Below, piece by piece: positions 20,376 to 59,298 of a DNA stretch of 64,000 bases (its first letter is position 1; the number at the start of each line of letters is the position of its first letter). The stretch covers positions 48,617 to 112,616 of the forward strand of contig CAZBWU010000001.1 of assembly GCA_964496095.1 (NCBI GenBank), written 5' to 3'. Made by a program: the position numbers and the translations under genes. Origin of the DNA: an uncultured Gammaproteobacteria bacterium (GTDB taxonomy: Bacteria; Patescibacteriota; Patescibacteriia; Magasanikbacterales; GWA2-37-8). The notes below the pieces were generated by a model. That model was not told the DNA's origin. It searched no databases and saw only the letters and a program-made list of their open reading frames with translations.

Positions 20376-21137
20376 ATGGGAACTATAGGATTTTTATTAC
20401 CATGGGTAGTCGGTTTGGTATTTTTAGGTTTAAGAACAGTCCAACAATATCAAAAAGGAGTTATTTTCCGTTTTGGTAAAATTGTGGGTATTAAAGAGCC
20501 TGGTCTAAATTGGATTATTCCATTTATTGATCAAGTGCGTAAAGTTGATTTCCGCACGGTCACATTGCCTGTGCCAACTCAAAAAATTATTACTCGCGAT
20601 AATGTGTCAGTCGATGTTTCGGCTGTAGCCTATTACAAGATAGTTGATCCAATCAAGAGTATTGTGGCGATTGAAAATGTGATGAGTGCGATAAACCAAA
20701 TCGCCCAAACTTCAATTCGCAACATTGTTGGTAAATTTCAACTCGATGAAATACTTAGCGAACGTGAACAGATTAACAAAAGTATTGCTGGCGTTTTGGA
20801 TGCTCATACAGAAGCTTGGGGAGTGGTGGTGTCTGTGGTAGAAATAAAAGATATTGAATTGCCAGAAGGTATGCAGAGAGCGATGGCCAAACAGGCGGAA
20901 GCGGAAAGAGAAAAGCGCGCCAAGATTATTGCTGCTGAGGGTGAATTTTTGGCTTCCCAAAGGCTCGCAGATACAGCCGATGTTATGCAAGCTCATCCAA
21001 TTGCTTTACAACTTCGCAATTTGCAAACTATGGCTGAAATTAGTGTGGAAAAAAACTCAACTATTATCTTCCCTGCTCAGTTTATGAGCACAATCGGTGA
21101 AATCAAGAAATTCATGAGCCAAGAAACAGCTAAGTAG
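20376..21137 (+). CDS. SPFH/band-7 (stomatin/HflK-like) domain membrane protein
   Basis: N-terminal TM segment, then the SPFH core (RTVTLPVPTQKIITRDNVSVDVSAVAYYKIVDP) and a coiled-coil (AMAKQAEAEREKRAKIIAAEGE). Confidence 0.85.
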   Translation: MGTIGFLLPWVVGLVFLGLRTVQQYQKGVIFRFGKIVGIKEPGLNWIIPFIDQVRKVDFRTVTLPVPTQKIITRDNVSVDVSAVAYYKIVDPIKSIVAIENVMSAINQIAQTSIRNIVGKFQLDEILSEREQINKSIAGVLDAHTEAWGVVVSVVEIKDIELPEGMQRAMAKQAEAEREKRAKIIAAEGEFLASQRLADTADVMQAHPIALQLRNLQTMAEISVEKNSTIIFPAQFMSTIGEIKKFMSQETAK

Positions 21138-21604: not shown

Positions 21605-22846
21605 ATGAATTCGATAAAAAGTTTAGTTAAAAAACACGGAAGCCCAATTGTTTTATTTTCCAAAAAAGAATTTAAAAAGTCGTATTCATCGCTACAGAAA
21701 TTTTTACCTCAGGTTAAGCATTTTTATTCTTTGAAGCCCCTGCCATTTGAAGAATGTGTAAAAATTGTGTCGAGTTGCAAAGGCTACGTAGATGTTGCTT
21801 CTTTAGGTGAATTAGAAATGGTAAAAAAAGTAGACCCAACCATGCTTTCTCGTTGTATATACACACATCCTATAAAAAAAGATGCTGAAATTAAATCGGC
21901 ATTTGAAAATGGTGTAGACGTAATGGTGGTGGATAATATGGAGGAAATTAAAAAATTTTTACCCTATAAAGATAAAGTAAAAATTTTAATTCGCCTTGGT
22001 TTTCCAAACGATGAAGCAAAGTGCAATCTGTCTGAAAGATATGGGGCTGATGAAGCAACATTTAAAGAACTTGTAAATTTTGCTTTTGATAACCAATTAA
22101 ATATAATTGGGGCCTCGTTTCATGTTGGAAGTCAAATGCAGAAACCAACCGAGCATATTAATGCTATTAAAAAGTGCAAGGTGTTTTATGATTGGGTATT
22201 TAAAAATCATGGCACAAGGTTTGGTACTTTAGATATTGGAGGTGGCTTTCCCGCAAAGTACAATAACTCTGATATGGATTTAGAAAAATTTTGTAAACCA
22301 ATCGGAGAGGCATTAGAAAATTTTTTCCCAAATACTGAAATTTGGTCTGAACCAGGAAGATCTGTTGCTGCCAATTGCATGATAGCCGTAAGCAGGGTAG
22401 TAGGGAAGACATTTAAAAATGGTAAAATGTGGTATTATTTGGACGATGGAGTTTATGGAACATATTCGGGTATGATGTATGAAGATATAACCTACGAGCT
22501 CTATTCTGTTAAAAAATCTAATGAAAAACCAATTGCTTCTATTTTTGCTGGCCCAACTTGCGATAGTGTGGATATTATAGTGCCAAATGTAATGTTCCAA
22601 CCCTTGGATATAGGAGATATTCTTTTTTCTAAAAGAATAGGGGCCTATAGCGTAACTAACAGAACACGTTTTAACTTGCTTGAATTAGCAAAGGTAATAC
22701 CGTATGATTTTGATTTAGAAGATTTTGAAAATATTTCGAGCTCTACGTCGGTCAGTGAGGAAAAAAATCTAATTCAAAAAATTTTTGGTACAGTATTTAA
22801 TCATACGGTCGCTCCATATAGGTATTTTAATAAAAAGAAAATTTAA
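21605..22846 (+). CDS. PLP-dependent Orn/Lys/Arg decarboxylase (alanine racemase-fold, group IV; ODC/DapDC-like)
   Basis: FYSLKPLP (Lys-PLP region), FHVGSQ, GGGFP and EPGRS motifs. The 413-aa length fits. Confidence 0.8.
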   Translation: MNSIKSLVKKHGSPIVLFSKKEFKKSYSSLQKFLPQVKHFYSLKPLPFEECVKIVSSCKGYVDVASLGELEMVKKVDPTMLSRCIYTHPIKKDAEIKSAFENGVDVMVVDNMEEIKKFLPYKDKVKILIRLGFPNDEAKCNLSERYGADEATFKELVNFAFDNQLNIIGASFHVGSQMQKPTEHINAIKKCKVFYDWVFKNHGTRFGTLDIGGGFPAKYNNSDMDLEKFCKPIGEALENFFPNTEIWSEPGRSVAANCMIAVSRVVGKTFKNGKMWYYLDDGVYGTYSGMMYEDITYELYSVKKSNEKPIASIFAGPTCDSVDIIVPNVMFQPLDIGDILFSKRIGAYSVTNRTRFNLLELAKVIPYDFDLEDFENISSSTSVSEEKNLIQKIFGTVFNHTVAPYRYFNKKKI

Positions 22847-22851
22847 TAAGT

Positions 22852-22962
22852 ATGGCTGAAATTAGTGTGGAGAAAAACTCAACCATCATTTTCCCAGCTC
22901 AGTTTATGAGTACAATCGGTGAGATTAGGAAATTCATGAGTCAAGAAACGGTAAATAATTAG
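22852..22962 (+). pseudogene. Orphan duplicate of the SPFH gene 3' end (gene remnant)
   Basis: About 110 nt that are roughly 85% identical to 21031-21137. It would encode MAEISVEKNSTIIFPAQFMSTIGEIRKFMSQETVNN against the SPFH C-terminus MAEISVEKNSTIIFPAQFMSTIGEIKKFMSQETAK. The differences are almost all synonymous. Confidence 0.75.
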
Positions 22963-25108: not shown

Positions 25109-26659
25109 TTATTTCATTTTTTCTCGTAATAATTTTTCCGCTACTACCGGATCGGCTGAGCCTTCGGTGGCTTTCATGACCATGCCTTTGAGAAATTGGA
25201 GAATTGATTCTTTGCCACTTTTGAATTGTTCGACTTGTTGCGGATAGTTCTTTATGATTTCATCTACAACTTCGGATAGCTTGCCTTCATCGCTGATTTG
25301 TCCGTAGCCTTTTTCTTCCATGACGTGCGTTGGGTCAAGGTCAACGCCGGAATCAAGCATTTCATTCAGGATTTTTTGGGCATTGGTGGAGTTAACCCGG
25401 TTGCTATATATCAAAGCAATAAGTTCGGCAAAATTTTCTGGTTTTAATTTGAGAATTTTTATATCAATTTTGCGTTCGGCCATGGCGCCGACAAGCTTAC
25501 TAGTAATCCAACCACCCGCGAGGCGGGCGATTTGTTGTTGTTTGTTTCGTTTGATTTCGTCTGTGTCGGTTTTGGATTCGCTCAAGTTATGAAGCCATTC
25601 TACTAGTTCGGTCATGACATTTTCGGTGTAATCTGCCCAGGTAGAATCATTGGCGAGCAGTTCGGCGTCGGCGTAAGAGAAACCATATTCTTCTCGGAAG
25701 CGTAAGCGTTTAGCTTGAGGGAGTTCTGGTAATAATACTTCACCTGCTACTTTGAGCGGATGAAATGGAGGAATGTCTGGCTCGGGGAAATAGCGGTAAT
25801 CAGCTGAACTTTCTTTTTCTCTTTGCATGACTGTCTCGCCTTTGTTGTCGTCCCAACCCCGAGTTTGTTGTTTCCATGTTTCGCCAATGGCTAACATTTC
25901 AGTCTGTCTTTTTATTTCAAAATCAATCGCTTTTTCGACAGCGCGGAAGGAGTTAATATTTTTGACTTCTACTTTTGGATTGAGGGTATAACCATCTACT
26001 GGTTTGATAATCCCGTGGTCGTTGACGAACTTACCTTCTTCTTGGATAGAAATATTGGCCTCACAGCGCATGTTGCCTTTTTCCATGTCAGCATCGCTGA
26101 TTTCTAGGTAACGAAAAATATTTTGTAATTCTTGGCAATACATTTTGGCTTCAGCAGAGCTAGTGACATCAGGCTCGGAGACAATCTCGACCAGAGGCAC
26201 GCCAGCACGGTTAAAATTGACCAAGGTGTTGCCGGAAGCGTCATGGGATAGTTTGGCCGTGTCTTCTTCCATATGCACTCTGGTGACCCCAATTTGGGCT
26301 TTATCGCGATGATTCTTGCCAGGAAGGAATTCTAGGTCAATGTAGCCGTGTTCGCCAATTGGTTGGTCAAACTGGGATATCTGGTAGCCTTTAGGAAGAT
26401 CTGGGTAAAAGTAATGTTTACGGTCAAATTTGCTTTCAGGATTGATCTCACAATTGAGGGCTTTGGCGATTTTGACTGCCCAGGCCAGGGCGGTTTGGTT
26501 GGGGACTGGCAGGGTGCCAGGGTGAGCGAGGCAGATTTCGCAGATATTTGCATTAGGCTCAGAAACAAAAGGATCATTTTTGCAACTGCAAAACATTTTG
26601 CTTTTGGTTTTGAGTTCAACGTGGATTTCCATGCCGATTATGGGGATGTATTTGGGCAT
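25109..26659 (-). CDS. gatB: Asp-tRNA(Asn)/Glu-tRNA(Gln) amidotransferase subunit B
   Basis: N-terminus MPKYIPIIGMEIHVELKTKSKMFCSC and the C-terminal YqeY-like tail. 516 aa. Confidence 0.95.
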   Translation of the reverse strand: MPKYIPIIGMEIHVELKTKSKMFCSCKNDPFVSEPNANICEICLAHPGTLPVPNQTALAWAVKIAKALNCEINPESKFDRKHYFYPDLPKGYQISQFDQPIGEHGYIDLEFLPGKNHRDKAQIGVTRVHMEEDTAKLSHDASGNTLVNFNRAGVPLVEIVSEPDVTSSAEAKMYCQELQNIFRYLEISDADMEKGNMRCEANISIQEEGKFVNDHGIIKPVDGYTLNPKVEVKNINSFRAVEKAIDFEIKRQTEMLAIGETWKQQTRGWDDNKGETVMQREKESSADYRYFPEPDIPPFHPLKVAGEVLLPELPQAKRLRFREEYGFSYADAELLANDSTWADYTENVMTELVEWLHNLSESKTDTDEIKRNKQQQIARLAGGWITSKLVGAMAERKIDIKILKLKPENFAELIALIYSNRVNSTNAQKILNEMLDSGVDLDPTHVMEEKGYGQISDEGKLSEVVDEIIKNYPQQVEQFKSGKESILQFLKGMVMKATEGSADPVVAEKLLREKMK

Positions 26660-26715
26660 AAATTTAACTTAAATTATGTTATAAGGTTATCATTTTTAAG
26701 TATTCTTTGCAATTA

Positions 26716-26984
26716 AATTTAATCCACCTTTTGTAACCAAAAGCATATTAGTTAGACCCTTTCTTTAGAAGAAAGGGCAAAAAGAAGCGCGAGCTAGTAA
26801 AATTACTCGGAGCCAGACAGGACTTCTCCTCACTTCCGCCCTGAACTCGCCTGCGGTCTCAAACAGCAGGGCGGATTCTTTTGAAGAACCGCTCAGGTTC
26901 GTCTCTGTCTGCTACCTCCTAATTTCAAGGCTCGCACGGACAGTTCGGATAGACGAAAGTCGTCGTTGTCTGTGCGAGCCTTGG
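26716..26984 (-). ncRNA. Structured intergenic element, copy A (candidate 5' leader of gatB). It is listed on the strand of gatB.
   Basis: A palindromic hairpin cttttg-taac-caaaag is followed by a roughly 220-nt core. Copy B (51267-51487) has the same core. Stem regions differ by compensatory changes. Both copies sit about 70 nt upstream of gatB or proS and in the same sense as the gene. Confidence 0.4.
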
Positions 26985-27307
26985 AAAAACGAAGTTTAAA
27001 TTTAGAGATGAGTTTTAGTGTTCGCCCAGCCCGCTCTTGCGGGGCTGGGGAAATTTTCAATTGTTTGAGACAGCTTTTTATAGAAAAGCTGTTGAGTTTT
27101 GAAAATTAACTAAAATGAGGTCTAAATTTTCTGAGTTTTTCCATTGTGAGCGCTTCTTTCTTTTGCTTTCTTCTAAAGAAAGCAAAAAGTAATTTGATTT
27201 TTGTTTACAAAAGGTGAAATTTAGATTTCTTCTAAAGAAGTAGAAAAAAAGTTTATTTAAAAAAACCTCGATCAATGTCGAAGTTTTTTTGTGAAAGATT
27301 TAGAAAA

Positions 27308-28810: not shown

Positions 28811-30439
28811 TTAGGATTGTTTTGAATATTTTTCTTCGAGAAGTTTTTCTTTGACTCGTTGTCTGGCTTCACTATCACCACGAGCGCTATCGTAGGCATT
28901 ATGATCTACAAAATTCATTATCTCGGCGCGCCAAGGGTCGATTTTTTTGATTTCATTGTGGATTTGTTGGCACAACTTTCTATACTGAGGGTGTCCTTGT
29001 TTGGTCGTGCGTAGCTCAAGCATATGCATCGCTTCACGATCATTGAAGCCCATTACCCAGCGTACACGAGTGCCGTGTAGAGATACATAGGATGCTACCT
29101 CTCCCAAATCCTCATAAATTTCATTATACAATTCTAAAACTTTTTCATGGCATTGCATAATACGGTCGGCATGACCAGCGTCTTGTAGATCTTGAGGAAC
29201 CACCATACCCATGCGAGGACTAAAAGTTTGGCGCATTTGGGTATTCATCCGGTGGCGCATCAAATCTTTGTAAGTGCCAAAATCAGCACACAAGTCTACT
29301 GTATAAGCATAACCGCTTTCTAGAGCTCTGCCAGGACGATCGCGACGAGTCTGTCTGTCGCCAACGTACATTTTCTTGATGAGTTGTTGGGTATCTTTAT
29401 CCATTTCTTTTACAATTTCGTAAAGTTGCATTAGAGGTAAGTTGCTATAGGCATAAAGCATATTTGCAATCAGGTATTCTTCGGTATGGATTAATTCCCA
29501 AGGCACAATAGCGACGGATAAATTTTCTTTAGCAATAATACCTGATAATAATTTGTTGGCCAAATCCTTCATGCTTTTTTCAATTGCAATGTTGTAATCT
29601 TTTTTCTTTGCTCTATGTACGTACTCGGGCATTATTTTTGAAAGTTCAGTAAACAAATTTTTACCGATTTGTTCTACTTCAGGGTAAGGGGTGCTTAAGA
29701 GGTGAGAGATGAGCATTTGGAAATAACGGCCATTACCGAACATGCCCACATTTGTTTTTGTGCTTAAAGGTAGTAGGCACCGCAAAGTATCACAAGCCTT
29801 AGTTTTTTGATCAATTTTGTGGGTAGTCCTAAAAGCTTTTTGGTCTTTTTCTTCAGTTAAATCTGCAAGTTTTTGTTTATTGCCAGTGCCCAGAATGTCG
29901 TATTCGGCTTTTTCTAAAGGGAATAATTCTTGATAAAAATTTTGCATTGGTTCTATTAATTCTTTGTAGGTATCAAAAACATAATCCATAGTTTGGATAT
30001 ATTTCTCAGCGTGTTTGGAAGCCATTATTTTTGGTTCACGGACATATTTATATAGACCGTCTTGATCTTTTTCGTCAAAAAATACATAGCGAGTCGATTT
30101 TTCAATAGGGGAGCCGCCAATGCGTCTGTCTTCGATTTCTTTGGTAGATAGTACGGAGATGTTTTCAAAAGAAACGTGGGAACCTTCAAGTTCTCCAACA
30201 GAATCATCGCCATAAGCCACGAGCACGCGTTCGATAAGTTCGTGAACATGTTCTAAATCAACCACACCATCTTTAACAAATTCTTTTAGTAGTATTTCTT
30301 GAAAACCAGTTTTAATACGACTGTATCTGGCGTAAATAGCGCCAGCAATGCCGGTTAAGTTTTTAACGGCAAAAACATTGCCACCAACGTTGGTTACATA
30401 TGATTCTAAAATCTTTTTTTCTTCATCATTAAATGCCAT
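28811..30439 (-). CDS. thyX: Flavin-dependent thymidylate synthase ThyX-like (long form)
   Basis: RHR-type segment (LMRHRMNTQMRQTFSPR) and context between tmk and dut/dCMP deaminase. The 542-aa length is unusual and suggests a duplicated or extended ThyX fold. Confidence 0.5.
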   Translation of the reverse strand: MAFNDEEKKILESYVTNVGGNVFAVKNLTGIAGAIYARYSRIKTGFQEILLKEFVKDGVVDLEHVHELIERVLVAYGDDSVGELEGSHVSFENISVLSTKEIEDRRIGGSPIEKSTRYVFFDEKDQDGLYKYVREPKIMASKHAEKYIQTMDYVFDTYKELIEPMQNFYQELFPLEKAEYDILGTGNKQKLADLTEEKDQKAFRTTHKIDQKTKACDTLRCLLPLSTKTNVGMFGNGRYFQMLISHLLSTPYPEVEQIGKNLFTELSKIMPEYVHRAKKKDYNIAIEKSMKDLANKLLSGIIAKENLSVAIVPWELIHTEEYLIANMLYAYSNLPLMQLYEIVKEMDKDTQQLIKKMYVGDRQTRRDRPGRALESGYAYTVDLCADFGTYKDLMRHRMNTQMRQTFSPRMGMVVPQDLQDAGHADRIMQCHEKVLELYNEIYEDLGEVASYVSLHGTRVRWVMGFNDREAMHMLELRTTKQGHPQYRKLCQQIHNEIKKIDPWRAEIMNFVDHNAYDSARGDSEARQRVKEKLLEEKYSKQS

Positions 30440-33831: not shown

Positions 33832-33917
33832 TGCCATCCTGAAGGGTTAACACCCTGAAGGATCTCTGCCTTAATCACCGTCGGACAGAGATTCTTCGCT
33901 TTGCTCAGAATGACAGG
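33832..33917. repeat. Short palindromic interspersed repeat units (same family as 10487-10648)
   Basis: gccatcctgaagggttaacaccctgaaggatctctgcc followed by an inverted unit gacagagattcttcgctttgctcagaatgacagg. Confidence 0.7.
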
Positions 33918-33954
33918 TAGTAATAAGTGTAGTGTACCTATATTTACCTGAAAA

Positions 33955-37857: not shown

Positions 37858-37915
37858 ATGTAAATTATTATTAAATAAGTAATAGTATTATAGAAGTAAA
37901 AAACTATTTAGTCAA

Positions 37916-38016
37916 TTGTCATTCTGAGTGAAACGAGGAATCTCTGTCGGGATAATTTAAAATTGACAGGGATCCTTAACGGAGTTTATCCCCTTTAGGG
38001 GGTTCAGGATGACAGT
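37916..38016. repeat. Short palindromic interspersed repeat units (GTCATTC family)
   Basis: ttgtcattctgagtgaaacgaggaatctctgtc followed by an inverted unit ending caggatgacag. Confidence 0.7.
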
Positions 38017-49745: not shown

Positions 49746-51047
49746 ATGTTTTTCAAAAATCCTTTGGATAAAAAATTTGCGCAGTGGGCGAGAGGTAAAA
49801 AAGTTTTGCCACTCAATGCTAGTGTGATGAAAGAAAAGTTTTTGAGTTCTGTAAAGAATAGTGATTTTGTAGAAGTAAAAAAAATACGTCCAGTAATGTT
49901 TAAAAAATTAGTTTTATCTTTTGGGCTTGCGGTGTTAGTTTTGCTCGTGGCTGGGGATATGACGAGAGTAATACTATTTCGTGGAAAAATGGCTGAAGAG
50001 TATGGAATTACACAAATTGGTGGGGTATCTAGGGGAGGTGGGTATGGCGTGACCATGAGTGCGCCTATTGCCGCAAATCGAGATGGGTATAATGAATCTT
50101 TTGATGCCTTGGGGCTTCAGCCGGGTAAAGCTACAGGTTTAGGGTCGAAGGATATAAGAGCACAGAGTCTTATTGGTATGGCTGCAGATAAAGCAACTTC
50201 GTTTGTGAAAGAATTTGTTCAACCGGAGTATCAACAAAATCGTTATTTTGCAACTTCAAATTCAATTAACGACACCCGTGAGTTTTCTAAGTTTACTTAT
50301 AATTCCGCGCTTAAAACTAGAGATGTTGAAGATGTAAGTACTAGAATTTTAACAACCATTCGTGGATACGGTGGGCGCGTGGATGACGCCTCTATTCAAG
50401 AAAAATATAGTTATATAAATTTTGTTGTTCCTAAAGATAATTTACTTCAATTTAAAACAGAGATCAAAGGCATGGTGGGTAAAAGGTTTTATGTAGAGAG
50501 TTTGCATATTCAAAATTTGCTTCCAGAGAAAGTTGCGATAGAGGAATCAACAGAAGTGGTAAATAAAAATTTAATTGACCTTCAAGATAAGCTGAAAGAA
50601 TTTACTGAGAAACATGGTAAAACTATCGCTGGTTTACAGCGGGATTTAGGCAGTGTAAATGGCAGGATTGCAAAATTAAACGCAGAAGTAACGTCTGACC
50701 CAGAGCGTCAAAAACAAATTAAAGTTGAAATTGCAGCCCTTGCTGCTCGTCAAGGAGTTTTGCAGCGGCAAATTATAAGTGAAAATAATAGATATAATTT
50801 TGATAAAGCAAGCATGGAACAATATATTAAAAGCACCCAGGCTAAGTTGGATAACTTAGATACACAAGAAAAAAATTTGTTGGATAATGTAGAGACCGTG
50901 CAAGGTTATGTGGCAGTACAATGGATAAGTGTTTGGCAAATGATAAATATTTATATTCCGCATTTGTGGGCTTGGGTGGTTGGGGCTATTGTTTTACTTC
51001 TTATATTTAATTACTTCAGTAAGCGGAGGACGATACAGGCTTGGTAG
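49746..51047 (+). CDS. Putative anti-sigma factor or membrane protein. It has an N-terminal TM, a long coiled-coil and a C-terminal TM, and is DUF4349-like.
   Basis: It starts 6 nt after the sigma factor stop. Hydrophobic helices are near residues 50-70 and at the extreme C-terminus, with a long heptad-rich region between. Confidence 0.5.
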   Translation: MFFKNPLDKKFAQWARGKKVLPLNASVMKEKFLSSVKNSDFVEVKKIRPVMFKKLVLSFGLAVLVLLVAGDMTRVILFRGKMAEEYGITQIGGVSRGGGYGVTMSAPIAANRDGYNESFDALGLQPGKATGLGSKDIRAQSLIGMAADKATSFVKEFVQPEYQQNRYFATSNSINDTREFSKFTYNSALKTRDVEDVSTRILTTIRGYGGRVDDASIQEKYSYINFVVPKDNLLQFKTEIKGMVGKRFYVESLHIQNLLPEKVAIEESTEVVNKNLIDLQDKLKEFTEKHGKTIAGLQRDLGSVNGRIAKLNAEVTSDPERQKQIKVEIAALAARQGVLQRQIISENNRYNFDKASMEQYIKSTQAKLDNLDTQEKNLLDNVETVQGYVAVQWISVWQMINIYIPHLWAWVVGAIVLLLIFNYFSKRRTIQAW

Positions 51048-51490
51048 TTTAATCCACCTTTTGTAACCAAAAGCTGGAGGGAAAAGTTTCCGAGACAGAT
51101 GAAACAGATAAGATAGTTTGGGATTCGCCGTCACTCTGGTTGTGAACTCAACCACCTTTCTATAAAAGGTGGTCTCAAACAGCACAACCAGTCCCAGTAA
51201 GCCGTAAAAGCGGCTTACTGGCGACCGTTCCGTCTCATCTCCAAATTATAAACTTACTGTTTCATACGCTCGGACAGACAACCGCCGTTGTCCGTGCGAG
51301 CCTTGAAATTACGAGGCAAGCAGACAGAGACGAGCTGGAGCGGTTCTTCAAAAGAATCCGCCCTGCTGTTTGAGTCCGCCCGAGGCGGATGAGTTCAGGG
51401 CGGAAGTGAGGGTGAGGCCTGTCTGGCTCCGAGTAATTTCACTAGCTCGCGCTTCTTGTTTACTTCTTGTAAAGAAGTAAAGTAAGATGT
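51048..51490 (+). ncRNA. Structured intergenic element, copy B (candidate 5' leader of proS)
   Basis: Hairpin taatccacc-CTTTTG-taac-CAAAAG at 51050-51074. The core at 51267-51487 is homologous to the reverse complement of 26759-26984, with compensatory substitutions in stems. It ends about 65 nt before the proS start codon. Confidence 0.4.
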
Positions 51491-51551
51491 TTGCCAAGAA
51501 TAAAAACAAATGCTAGAATTGGTAAAGATTTTACTAATATATTAGGTTTAT

Positions 51552-52787
51552 ATGCGTTATTCTCAGATGTTTGGAAAAACGACCAAGAGTGCCCAGGCTG
51601 ATGCCGACAGTGCCAATGCCAAGTTTCTTACTCAGGGCGGTTTTGTTGATCAAGAAATGGCTGGTGTCTACACCTGGTTACCTTTGGGTTTGCATGTACT
51701 TCGTAAAGTAGAGCAGATCGTGCGTGAAGAGATGAATGCGCTGGGAGCATTGGAAATCTTTATGCCAAGCTTGCAGCCAAAAGAATATTGGGAGAAAACC
51801 AAACGCTGGGAAGGTGTAGATATACTTTTTAAATTGAAGTCACAAACTGACAAGGATTATGCGCTGGGTTGTACTCATGAAGAAGTGGTGACACCACTTG
51901 TGCAGAAGTTTATTCAATCATACAAAGAACTACCTTTGGCTGTTTATCAGATTAATACCAAATTTCGCGATGAGTTGCGAGCCAAGTCCGGTGTTTTGCG
52001 CGGGCGTGAATTTCGTATGAAAGACATGTATAGTTTTCATACTTCTCAAGAAGATTTAGAAAAATTTTATCATCGCGCTTTGCAAGCCTATGTAAAAGTT
52101 TTTTCTCGCTGTGGAATGAATGTCAAAGTGGTGCAGGCAAGTGGTGGTATTTTTACTTCCAATATCAGTCATGAATTTCAAGCTATCACACCAGCCGGTG
52201 AAGATAATTTGATTGCCTGTGAAGTTTGTTCTTTTGGACAAAATGTTGAGATTGCAACTGTCAAAGAAGGTGAAGCCTGCCCAGAGTGTAGTGGCAAACT
52301 TATTAAAACCAAAGGTATTGAGGTGGGAAATATTTTTGATTTAGGAACTAAATATACAGACGCTTTTGAGTTTGATGTAAATAATGCTGAAGGAAAAGTA
52401 CAGCGTGTTTTAATGGGTTGTTATGGTATTGGTACTTCGAGACTGGTGGGAGCGATTGTAGAAACTTTCCATGATGACAAGGGTATTATTTGGCCAGAGT
52501 CTGTAGCTCCATACAAAGTCCATTTAGTTTCTTTAGGTAATGATGAAGCTGTAAAACAAGAAGCCGAAAAATTATATAATGAATTATTATCTAAAGGCAT
52601 TGAAGTTTTATTTGATGACCGCGATGCTTCGGCTGGCGCCAAGTTGGCTGATGCAGATTTGATTGGCGTGCCTTGGAGAGTAGTTGTTTCCAAAAAAACT
52701 TTGGCTGAAGGTAGTGTGGAATTAAAAGAGAGAAATAAAAGCGAAGCGGAGATGGTGAAGTTGAGTGAAATTTTAAACAAGATTTAA
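51552..52787 (+). CDS. proS: Proline--tRNA ligase (short form without INS editing domain)
   Basis: Class II motifs. The N-terminus MRYSQMFGKTTK...FLTQGGFVDQEMAGVYTWLPLG matches ProS. 411 aa with a C-terminal anticodon-binding domain. Confidence 0.9.
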   Translation: MRYSQMFGKTTKSAQADADSANAKFLTQGGFVDQEMAGVYTWLPLGLHVLRKVEQIVREEMNALGALEIFMPSLQPKEYWEKTKRWEGVDILFKLKSQTDKDYALGCTHEEVVTPLVQKFIQSYKELPLAVYQINTKFRDELRAKSGVLRGREFRMKDMYSFHTSQEDLEKFYHRALQAYVKVFSRCGMNVKVVQASGGIFTSNISHEFQAITPAGEDNLIACEVCSFGQNVEIATVKEGEACPECSGKLIKTKGIEVGNIFDLGTKYTDAFEFDVNNAEGKVQRVLMGCYGIGTSRLVGAIVETFHDDKGIIWPESVAPYKVHLVSLGNDEAVKQEAEKLYNELLSKGIEVLFDDRDASAGAKLADADLIGVPWRVVVSKKTLAEGSVELKERNKSEAEMVKLSEILNKI

Positions 52788-59101: not shown

Positions 59102-59112
59102 ATTGTTCGTAA

Positions 59113-59298
59113 CTGTCATTCTGAGTAAAGCGAAGAATCCCTGTCTGTACAATTGTCATTCCGACCGAAGTGGAGGAATCCCTTAAACAAGGTATTTGCA
59201 TGTACATAGTATAAGGGATCCCTCGACGGAGTTTATACCCTTTAGGGTGCTCGGGATGACAAACGGACAGAGATCCTTCATTTCATTCAGGATGACAA
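59113..59298. repeat. Cluster of short palindromic interspersed repeats filling the carA-carB spacer
   Basis: ctgtcattctgagtaaagcgaagaatccctgtctg, ttgtcattccgaccgaagtggaggaatccc, and inverted units (ggtgctcgggatgacaaacggacagagatcc, cattcaggatgacaac). Confidence 0.75.

Follow-up and report, generated by a model that had tools for sequence, protein, structure and literature searches.

Several kinds of repeat and structured RNA resemble an element that is present twice in the window (the whole 64,000-nt stretch of DNA that was analysed), once beside gatB and once beside proS. In the Bacillus cereus group, bcr1-type repeats of about 155 bp have been described, which carry 5-bp flanking direct repeats and are transcribed (PMC3184786, citing Okstad 2004, Klevan 2007, Kristoffersen 2011). 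Their multi-hairpin (cruciform-like) fold is kept by compensatory base changes and they are unevenly distributed among close strains (PMC3184786). The element described here is likewise non-coding, intergenic, found in one clade and patchy among close strains, and compensatory changes maintain its fold as well. It differs from bcr1 in its 350-nt core with at least eight helices, its two inverted modules and terminal palindromes, and in having no consistent direct repeats. Whereas bcr1 is transcribed, the Magasanikbacteria element is known here from sequence alone, and the two have no sequence relationship.

With MITEs the element shares an inverted-repeat character of the ends, an intergenic position, presence/absence polymorphism and truncated copies, and with 0.35-0.5 kb and no transposase ORF it has the size and coding content of a MITE. 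The fold of a MITE, however, is one long hairpin formed by its terminal inverted repeats, and helix-by-helix covariation and invariant linkers are unexpected in a MITE interior. Besides, the element has no consistent target-site duplication and no known parent IS. REP, BIME and REPIN sequences are mosaics of palindromic units in alternating orientation, with conserved linkers and an intergenic position after terminators. The element is similar in these respects, and its two inverted modules resemble a REP doublet. REP units measure 20-40 nt and REPINs 70-110 nt; they occur in tens to hundreds of copies and are linked to a RAYT gene. In contrast, the element is 3-5 times larger and its modules are much larger than REP units. 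In size, invariant linkers and two-module layout the element is different from bcr1, MITEs and REP/BIME.

Large complex folds, multiple copies and mobile-element behaviour are also found in HEARO/omega RNA (IscB, TnpB) and in the IS110 bridge RNA, and the stem/internal-loop/hairpin outline of the modules is that of the bridge-RNA binding loop. Here, no cognate IscB, TnpB or IS110 recombinase gene adjoins any copy or occurs among the window ORFs scanned, there is no HEARO match, and the modules are inverted, not direct. A check for an omega- or bridge-type guide revealed a variable tail that follows the last conserved stem, and the tails have no sensible match within the window at up to 2 mismatches per 16-mer. 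A bridge-RNA reading of the two loops was rejected, as it would have the two sides of a loop pairing to one and the same DNA strand and as the element ends lack the sites it predicts. What the element has in common with T-box leaders is structure, a place upstream of aminoacylation genes and alternative pairings. It differs from them in giving no T-box model match, in being located upstream of promoter-like sites instead of in a 5' UTR, in having no fixed orientation and in not being conserved at orthologous genes.

The Rfam 15 scan proposed by the earlier note on this DNA was performed on the window and five related loci and gave no match at the gathering score. At E <= 10 both strands of both loci yielded noise only, with no T-box, riboswitch, intron or HEARO. 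A group I or group II intron was rejected in the absence of any Rfam intron match at this threshold, every copy moreover being intergenic. The element contains no ORF above 65 aa and none conserved across copies, for which reason a small toxin-like or other conserved ORF was rejected as well; when the protein collection was searched with the longest frame that is open in every copy, so as to find further copies through spuriously called ORFs, nothing was returned. The same was true of blastn against phage and plasmid collections. Exact-pattern scans of viral contigs with 16- to 20-mers of conserved blocks and with the 27-mer described below gave chance matches only, and in neither these nor the metagenome contigs scanned with a 19-mer was an element with coding capacity encountered. 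No transposase, recombinase, reverse transcriptase or RAYT/TnpA-like (Y1-transposase-type) gene was present among the 27 window ORFs scanned, which comprise nearly all ORFs of at least 250 aa.

Extent and anatomy of the two copies

Inverted look-alike cores beside gatB and proS had been reported in the earlier note, and the repeat search and alignment bore this out: arms 26779-26848 and 51391-51460 are 91% complementary, and arms 26853-26913 and 51319-51379 are 93% complementary. The copies extend from 26757 to 27108 (+) and from 51136 to 51481 (-), are inverted relative to each other and measure about 350 nt each. The identical blocks listed in the note were recovered by reading the sequence and aligning the copies. 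So were the difference between CGCCTGCGG and CCGCCTCGGGCGG and the GGCTCGCAC...GCGAGCC stem, which is present in both copies with differing loops. The element is real, but the length of about 220 nt originally given to it was too short, since the homology continues for about 125 nt past the reported end, to 27108 and 51136. This additional part consists of two further hairpins and a closing stem, with compensatory changes in all of them. The core of about 350 nt becomes about 440-510 bp when the flanks are included. Likewise, the distance of about 70 nt to the start codons was correct for proS, where the first hairpin is 71 nt away, but not for gatB, where it is 98 nt. The copies have the following layout.

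26757-26777, + strand: terminal hairpin P1 of copy 1, CCCTTTCTT-TAG-AAGAAAGGG; the stem sequence varies among copies and pairing is retained
26782-26928, + strand: 5' domain of copy 1, with near-invariant linkers, long-range helices P2b, P2c and P3, module A and hairpin P4
26835-26875, + strand: module A (P3a) of copy 1, within the 5' domain
26873-26890, + strand: hairpin P4 of copy 1, within the 5' domain
26929-26980, + strand: central hairpin P5 of copy 1, with a 23-nt loop insertion that has a short GAC/GUC stem and a GAAA cap
27024-27049, + strand: hairpin P6 of copy 1, different in sequence in each full-length copy
27050-27108, + strand: module B of copy 1, with stem P7, loop UGUUUGAG, hairpin P8 (UAUAG loop), loop UUGAGUU and stem P7'
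51136-51481, - strand: core of copy 2, with P1 (51459-51481), the 5' domain, module A (51357-51404), P5 (51267-51302), P6 (51193-51222) and module B (51136-51191)

All copies are intergenic, and the two in the window have as neighbours gatB, the gene of a 252-aa membrane-type protein, the gene of a DUF4349-like protein, and proS. Compared with dinucleotide shuffles both window copies fold into far more stable structures (z = -6.75 and -10.25). An independent Logan assembly of SRR10036081 reproduced both loci and their junctions with 100% identity. Its contigs terminate at 26887 and 51367, within a 37-nt block common to both copies, as is expected of a true repeat.

The anatomy is described on the + strand of copy 1. 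The element is a mosaic of near-invariant linkers and of hairpins that are wholly different in sequence among the copies while their pairing is kept. P1 is followed by the near-invariant stretch AAGAAGCGCGAGCUARUGAAAUUACUCGGAGCCAGACAGG. The long-range helices are P2b (UGAAAUUA:UAAUUUCA), P2c and P3 (CAGACAG:CUGUCUG). Within P3a lie an internal loop (AACUC / CUCAAACAG) and a hairpin that is optional and has 0-11 bp. P7, at the other end of the core, surrounds the internal loop YUGUUUGAG / UUGAGUU together with hairpin P8, whose UAUAG loop is invariant. The variable tail comes next.

Base-pairing and the two-fold modules

Compensatory stem substitutions, which had been noted from the two copies in the window, were examined in an alignment of seven copies from six related contigs (84 pairs, 474 cells). 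They were confirmed. Both sides had changed in 21 of the 84 pairs, against 8.5 +/- 2.1 in shuffles, a number reached by none of the 500 shuffles. Standard pairs made up 95.8% of the 474 cells (89.2% in shuffles), and when the 3' partners were slid along the alignment pairing fell to 33-46%. At least seven helices covary. Covarying pairs number 8/9 in P7, 7/9 in P8 and 4/9 in P3a. In strain L118 the P3a stem is fully compensated, with CUCUCGUG:CACGAGAG in place of CCGCCCUG:CAGGGCGG, and P1, P6 and the optional hairpin have sequences that are wholly different among copies and still pair. Helices P2b, P2c and P3 and the loop-loop pairings are invariant across the copies and are therefore neither supported nor refuted by this comparison. 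Together, these results show a multi-copy non-coding element that, judged from its alignment, appears to be under selection for a specific fold.

The conserved GGCUCGC has two alternative partners, either the upstream GCGAGCU, by which the 5' domain is closed, or the downstream GCGAGCC, by which P5 is formed. In the short forms of the element the upstream GCGAGCU is the sole partner option. The alternative pairings could be a conformational switch or a coincidence.

A covariance model built from P7/P8 alone, to which module B of copy 1 scores 80.2 bits, also matched each copy on the opposite strand, at the P3a region (32-66 bits). In L118 this match includes the UAUAG loop. Over 12 module instances 18 of the 18 pairs covary, and 97.8% of the cells are paired as opposed to 68.8% in shuffles. 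Each element is thus composed of two inverted copies of one stem/internal-loop/hairpin module, 59 nt each and about 170 nt apart. The module loops read YUGUUUGAG and UGAGUU. The inverted relationship of the modules explains the perfect complementarity of the two internal loops (8 + 5 nt). Such a two-fold arrangement predicts loop-loop docking or a dimeric binding partner.

Distribution, flanks and empty sites

Judged by the relatives of its GatB, the organism is a Candidatus Magasanikbacteria bacterium and so belongs to the Patescibacteria/CPR. For the comparison with relatives, 80 gatB loci from GTDB genomes and the proS and gatB contexts of the closest relatives were fetched, together with metagenome contigs. 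Besides those in the window, the following copies were recovered.

L017, gatB locus: copy in a relative with 95% GatB identity
L118, gatB locus: copy in a relative with 98% GatB identity, 5' half only
L110 and L111, proS loci: copies in relatives with 97% and 91% ProS identity
L101, unrelated locus: partial copy (5' half), adjoining unrelated sequence

The scan of the metagenome contigs with a 19-mer gave two real matches (L098, which is the same as L017, and L101) and four chance matches. At gatB, relatives with 92%, 88%, 86% and lower identity lack the element, as do those with 88% and 86% identity at proS; it is also missing from 78 further gatB loci of Patescibacteria. At the empty orthologous sites synteny is conserved and the intergenic gaps are just 62-132 nt. 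No further copies were detected by nhmmer over the fetched Patescibacteria gatB and proS loci (about 1.5-1.7 Mb) or by a covariance-model search of 92 fetched loci (about 1.5 Mb). As far as these searches reach, the family is confined to one species-level clade of Magasanikbacteria, and its known extent is three loci (gatB, proS and L101) with about seven copies.

The position and form of the copies are not stable. In L017 the core is located upstream of gatB in the opposite orientation. The earlier note had named copies at many unrelated loci irrespective of gene orientation as the sign of a MITE; part of this was found, namely the flipped copy of L017 and the unrelated locus of L101. Strains whose flanking proteins are 95-98% identical have different stem sets at the same locus. 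The P7/P8 stems of the L110 proS copy are of the type of window copy 1, not copy 2, and the gatB copy of L017 is similar to copy 2 and L111. Different stem sets at one locus imply that copies were exchanged or replaced. Between the DUF4349-like gene and proS, L111 (1436-1972) and L112 (3252-3791) contain a gene of 178/179 aa that has no trace in the window (no tblastn match), where copy 2 starts directly after the stop codon of the ORF at 49746-51047. This suggests a deletion adjoining the element.

The flanks of the copies were compared in the same manner.

26718-26744, + strand: exact 27-mer flank motif of copy 1, on its gatB-proximal side; it forms an imperfect palindrome of 10 bp around TAAC
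27150-27243, - strand: right flank of copy 1, where 26714-26790 recurs in inverted form with 77% identity and a third P1-like hairpin comes after it
51048-51094, - strand: 3' end of copy 2, consisting of module CTCGGAAACTTTTCCCTCCA and the reverse complement of the 27-mer, adjoining the stop codon of ORF 49746-51047
51095-51135, - strand: variable tail of copy 2, unalignable with the tail of copy 1

The 27-mer TTTAATCCACCTTTTGTAACCAAAAGC occurs exactly, on the + strand, at 26718-26744 and 51048-51074, with 0 occurrences expected by chance. It contains the CTTTTG-taac-CAAAAG hairpin that had been said to accompany both copies. The hairpin is indeed present with both, but on opposite sides, the 27-mer being gatB-proximal at copy 1 and proS-distal at copy 2. 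In 1.77 Mb of fetched Patescibacteria DNA the flank motifs, including the 27-mer, were found only beside copies of the element. Copy 1 is bracketed by a 79-nt inverted repeat (77% identical), and the duplicate of 26714-26790 in its right flank comprises a 27-mer-like motif, a hairpin and AAGAAGCGC. Palindromic hairpins TTCTTTAnAAGAA are located at both element ends in inverted orientation, each with a 27-nt motif. A 3' module, CTCGGRAACTTTTCCCTCCA, is conserved in copy 2, L017 and L111 and is followed by the 27-mer and then by the second terminal hairpin. The 10-bp AATAAATTTA that flanks the L017 copy only is a candidate target-site duplication; comparison of the flanks and of filled with empty sites revealed none that was consistent across copies and gave no exact ends for the element.

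On one side of the element is the terminator of a gene, and on the other the promoter-like site of the next gene. The comparison of loci shows it to behave as an insertion, which is present in either orientation and also in a truncated 5'-domain form, and which is reshuffled between subfamilies. With only three loci and about seven copies at hand, it is from presence and absence that we infer that the element is, or was recently, mobile or spread by recombination. In a relative with 73% identity (L020, 8990-9240) the region upstream of gatB contains another long structured insert, which is of a different kind and has palindromes of the GTCATTGCGAG...CTCGCAATGAC type. The terminator-to-promoter gap at this gene may be a recurrent landing site for repeats.

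Some other repeats and rearrangements were observed in the window. A second, unrelated small intergenic repeat, CTGTCATTCTGAGyrAAGCGAAGAATCyCTGTC, is present in three copies at 37914-37957 (+), 59111-59154 (+) and 33884-33926 (-). A 110-nt direct repeat (87%) at 21018-21127 and 22840-22949 duplicates the 3' end of a Band_7/SPFH gene and flanks a 1.7-kb insert of two genes, a 145-aa ORF and an Orn/Arg decarboxylase gene. In L118, the relative with 98% GatB identity, Band_7 directly adjoins the OTCase gene, and the 1.7-kb stretch looks like an insertion with a duplicated junction. At 28811-30439 (-) a 542-aa gene of the ThyX type (two matched stretches, Pfam Thy1) precedes the thymidylate kinase gene. 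In its place thyA and DHFR are found in close relatives (the P0122 contig and L119), which appears to be a non-orthologous replacement between near relatives.

Interpretation of the element

The reading that we prefer, and to which a slightly better than even chance is given, is that the copies belong to a small clade-restricted non-coding interspersed repeat family, recently inserted, of which a folded single strand would be under selection and would serve the element itself. Whether this strand is RNA or DNA was approached through the base pairs. In the seven-copy table 15 G-U cells are found at 9 pair positions, as against about 4 A-C cells (the latter counted by reading the cells classed as 'other'). 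Midway along P5, 4 of 5 copies have a G-U pair, helix Px has a one-sided change from G-U to A-U, unpaired positions are rich in A (A 189 versus U 132), and a GAAA loop caps the short stem in the P5 insertion of copy 1. These features lean towards RNA read from the + strand of copy 1, so that the selected strand would probably be RNA. Minimum free energy did not consistently favour either strand, and the G-U fraction of the predicted folds was uninformative in this respect. Consensus scans yielded no promoter or terminator belonging to the element.

A serious rival, although an unlikely one in our estimation, is that the element acts as DNA. It would then form ssDNA hairpins or cruciforms in the manner of REP/BIME/REPIN sequences or of IS200/IS605 ends, a mosaic that a protein binding or cleaving DNA, for instance a Y1/HUH transposase, would recognise, and there would be no functional RNA. 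The inverted modules are like terminal or subterminal inverted repeats, palindromic hairpins stand at both ends and the 27-mer is itself palindromic. Most hairpin loops are 3-5 nt and most stems are perfect or near-perfect palindromes, which fits DNA hairpins as well as RNA. The lack of a consistently better folding strand agrees with DNA too, as do the about equal numbers of G-U and A-C cells inside the two modules and the compensatory changes, which are mostly transversion pairs and not steps via G-U. Outside the modules, however, G-U clearly exceeds A-C and the P5 pair mentioned above is kept. Transposon ends would not be expected to have linkers that are long, near-invariant and non-palindromic, or an asymmetric layout of several helices; the element is several-fold larger than REP/REPIN units, and none of the scanned window ORFs is RAYT/TnpA-like. 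Considerably less probable is a family of host trans-acting ncRNAs (paralogous genes of sRNAs or RNP scaffolds) that were duplicated by recombination and not by a mobility mechanism. The strong purifying selection on linkers and base-pairing in every full-length copy and the retention of two intact copies within 25 kb of a small CPR genome would agree with it. Against such a family stands the absence of the element at <= 88% protein identity at both loci, at gatB of the 92% relative and at the 78 other gatB loci. Furthermore, the only copy at the gatB locus is truncated in the strain whose GatB is 98% identical, orientation and flanks are rearranged among near-identical strains, and the element is accompanied by its terminal palindromes and flank motifs.

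The remaining alternatives involve the neighbouring genes. The names gatB (25109-26659, -) and proS (51552-52787, +) were right according to Pfam and NCBIfam. ProS is a short, 411-aa protein of bacterial type without the INS editing domain, which passes the TIGR00409 cut-off and falls just under that of NF006625. Upstream of these genes two sites were assigned.

26664-26712, - strand: inferred promoter region of gatB (TTGCAA, 17 nt, TAACCT with TG-A before it), outside the element
51491-51519, + strand: promoter-like site of proS (TTGCCA, 17 nt, TAGAAT, with TG) from the consensus scan, not part of the element

The gatB site was read by eye and was not listed by the consensus scan. Both sites, which are consensus matches and not mapped transcription starts, are located between the element and the start codon. 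The earlier note had proposed a shared 5' leader in the gene sense, and a cis leader, T-box-like or of a new class, that senses tRNA charging and regulates gatB and proS is the least probable of the readings considered, to the point of being nearly discounted. In its favour, the window copies have the same orientation to their neighbour genes, both genes act in tRNA aminoacylation, and GGCUCGC can pair with the upstream or the downstream GCGAGC. However, the promoter-like sites are downstream of the element, and relatives that lack it have similar sites in the same place (at gatB similar hexamers in L018 and L119). Orthologous loci of close relatives are empty, the element is flipped in L017 and truncated in L118, and a partial copy lies at the unrelated locus L101. 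The note's failure to match a T-box consensus was confirmed: there was no T-box match on either strand of either locus even at E <= 10, and none in the relatives at the gathering score. As the window is rich in translation genes (ileS, a class I Trp/Tyr-type aaRS gene, tgt and rplA), two aminoacylation neighbours are unsurprising and weak evidence of a functional link. The copies beside gatB and proS are an inserted repeat and not a shared regulatory leader for tRNA-charging genes. It is also very improbable that the element is a promoter-proximal insertion kept because it supplies or modifies the -35 or UP region or insulates the gene from read-through. The terminal hairpin does lie within about 20 nt of the -35 box in 5 of the 6 gene-linked copies, and filled sites have GTTTGCCAA at both loci where empty sites have TTGCAA or TTGCAT. 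The gatB copy of the window retains TTGCAA, however, and the spacer and -10 are homologous in filled and empty sites, which implies that the promoter is older than the insertion. Moreover, selection on 350 nt of internal structure would be left unexplained.

We therefore return to the preferred reading of a self-serving, folded repeat. Under it, the selected strand would most likely be the transcript of the copy 1 + strand, which points away from gatB and proS in the window. Its RNA would probably serve the element, for instance as the scaffold or recognition RNA of a protein whose gene lies elsewhere and by which the element is copied or maintained, and would probably not be a regulator of aminoacylation genes. 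Should the expression of gatB or proS be affected at all, this would be incidental to the element having landed immediately upstream of the -35 boxes. A bolder form of this idea, which we hold to be doubtful, is an undescribed class of large (about 350 nt) pseudo-twofold structured RNA carried on a self-propagating CPR element. Its loops would dock mutually or on a nucleic-acid target, and the RNA would be a ribozyme, or else would guide an unlinked protein, or serve as its scaffold, in moving or maintaining the element.

The present importance of the family is modest, as it is known from a handful of near-identical strains and by sequence only. It also holds a caution, namely that two structured look-alikes upstream of genes with related functions can be insertions and not the signal of a regulon. 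With its near-invariant linkers, at least seven covarying helices and two-fold modules the family is unusually clean. Large RNAs with a complex fold and no known function are rare, and HEARO, which turned out to be the IscB guide RNA, is an example of how such RNAs proved important once their partner was found. The element belongs to a CPR lineage, in which genomes are tiny and selfish DNA is thought to be scarce, and there is a minority chance that it represents a functional RNA of a new class whose protein partner is unlinked.
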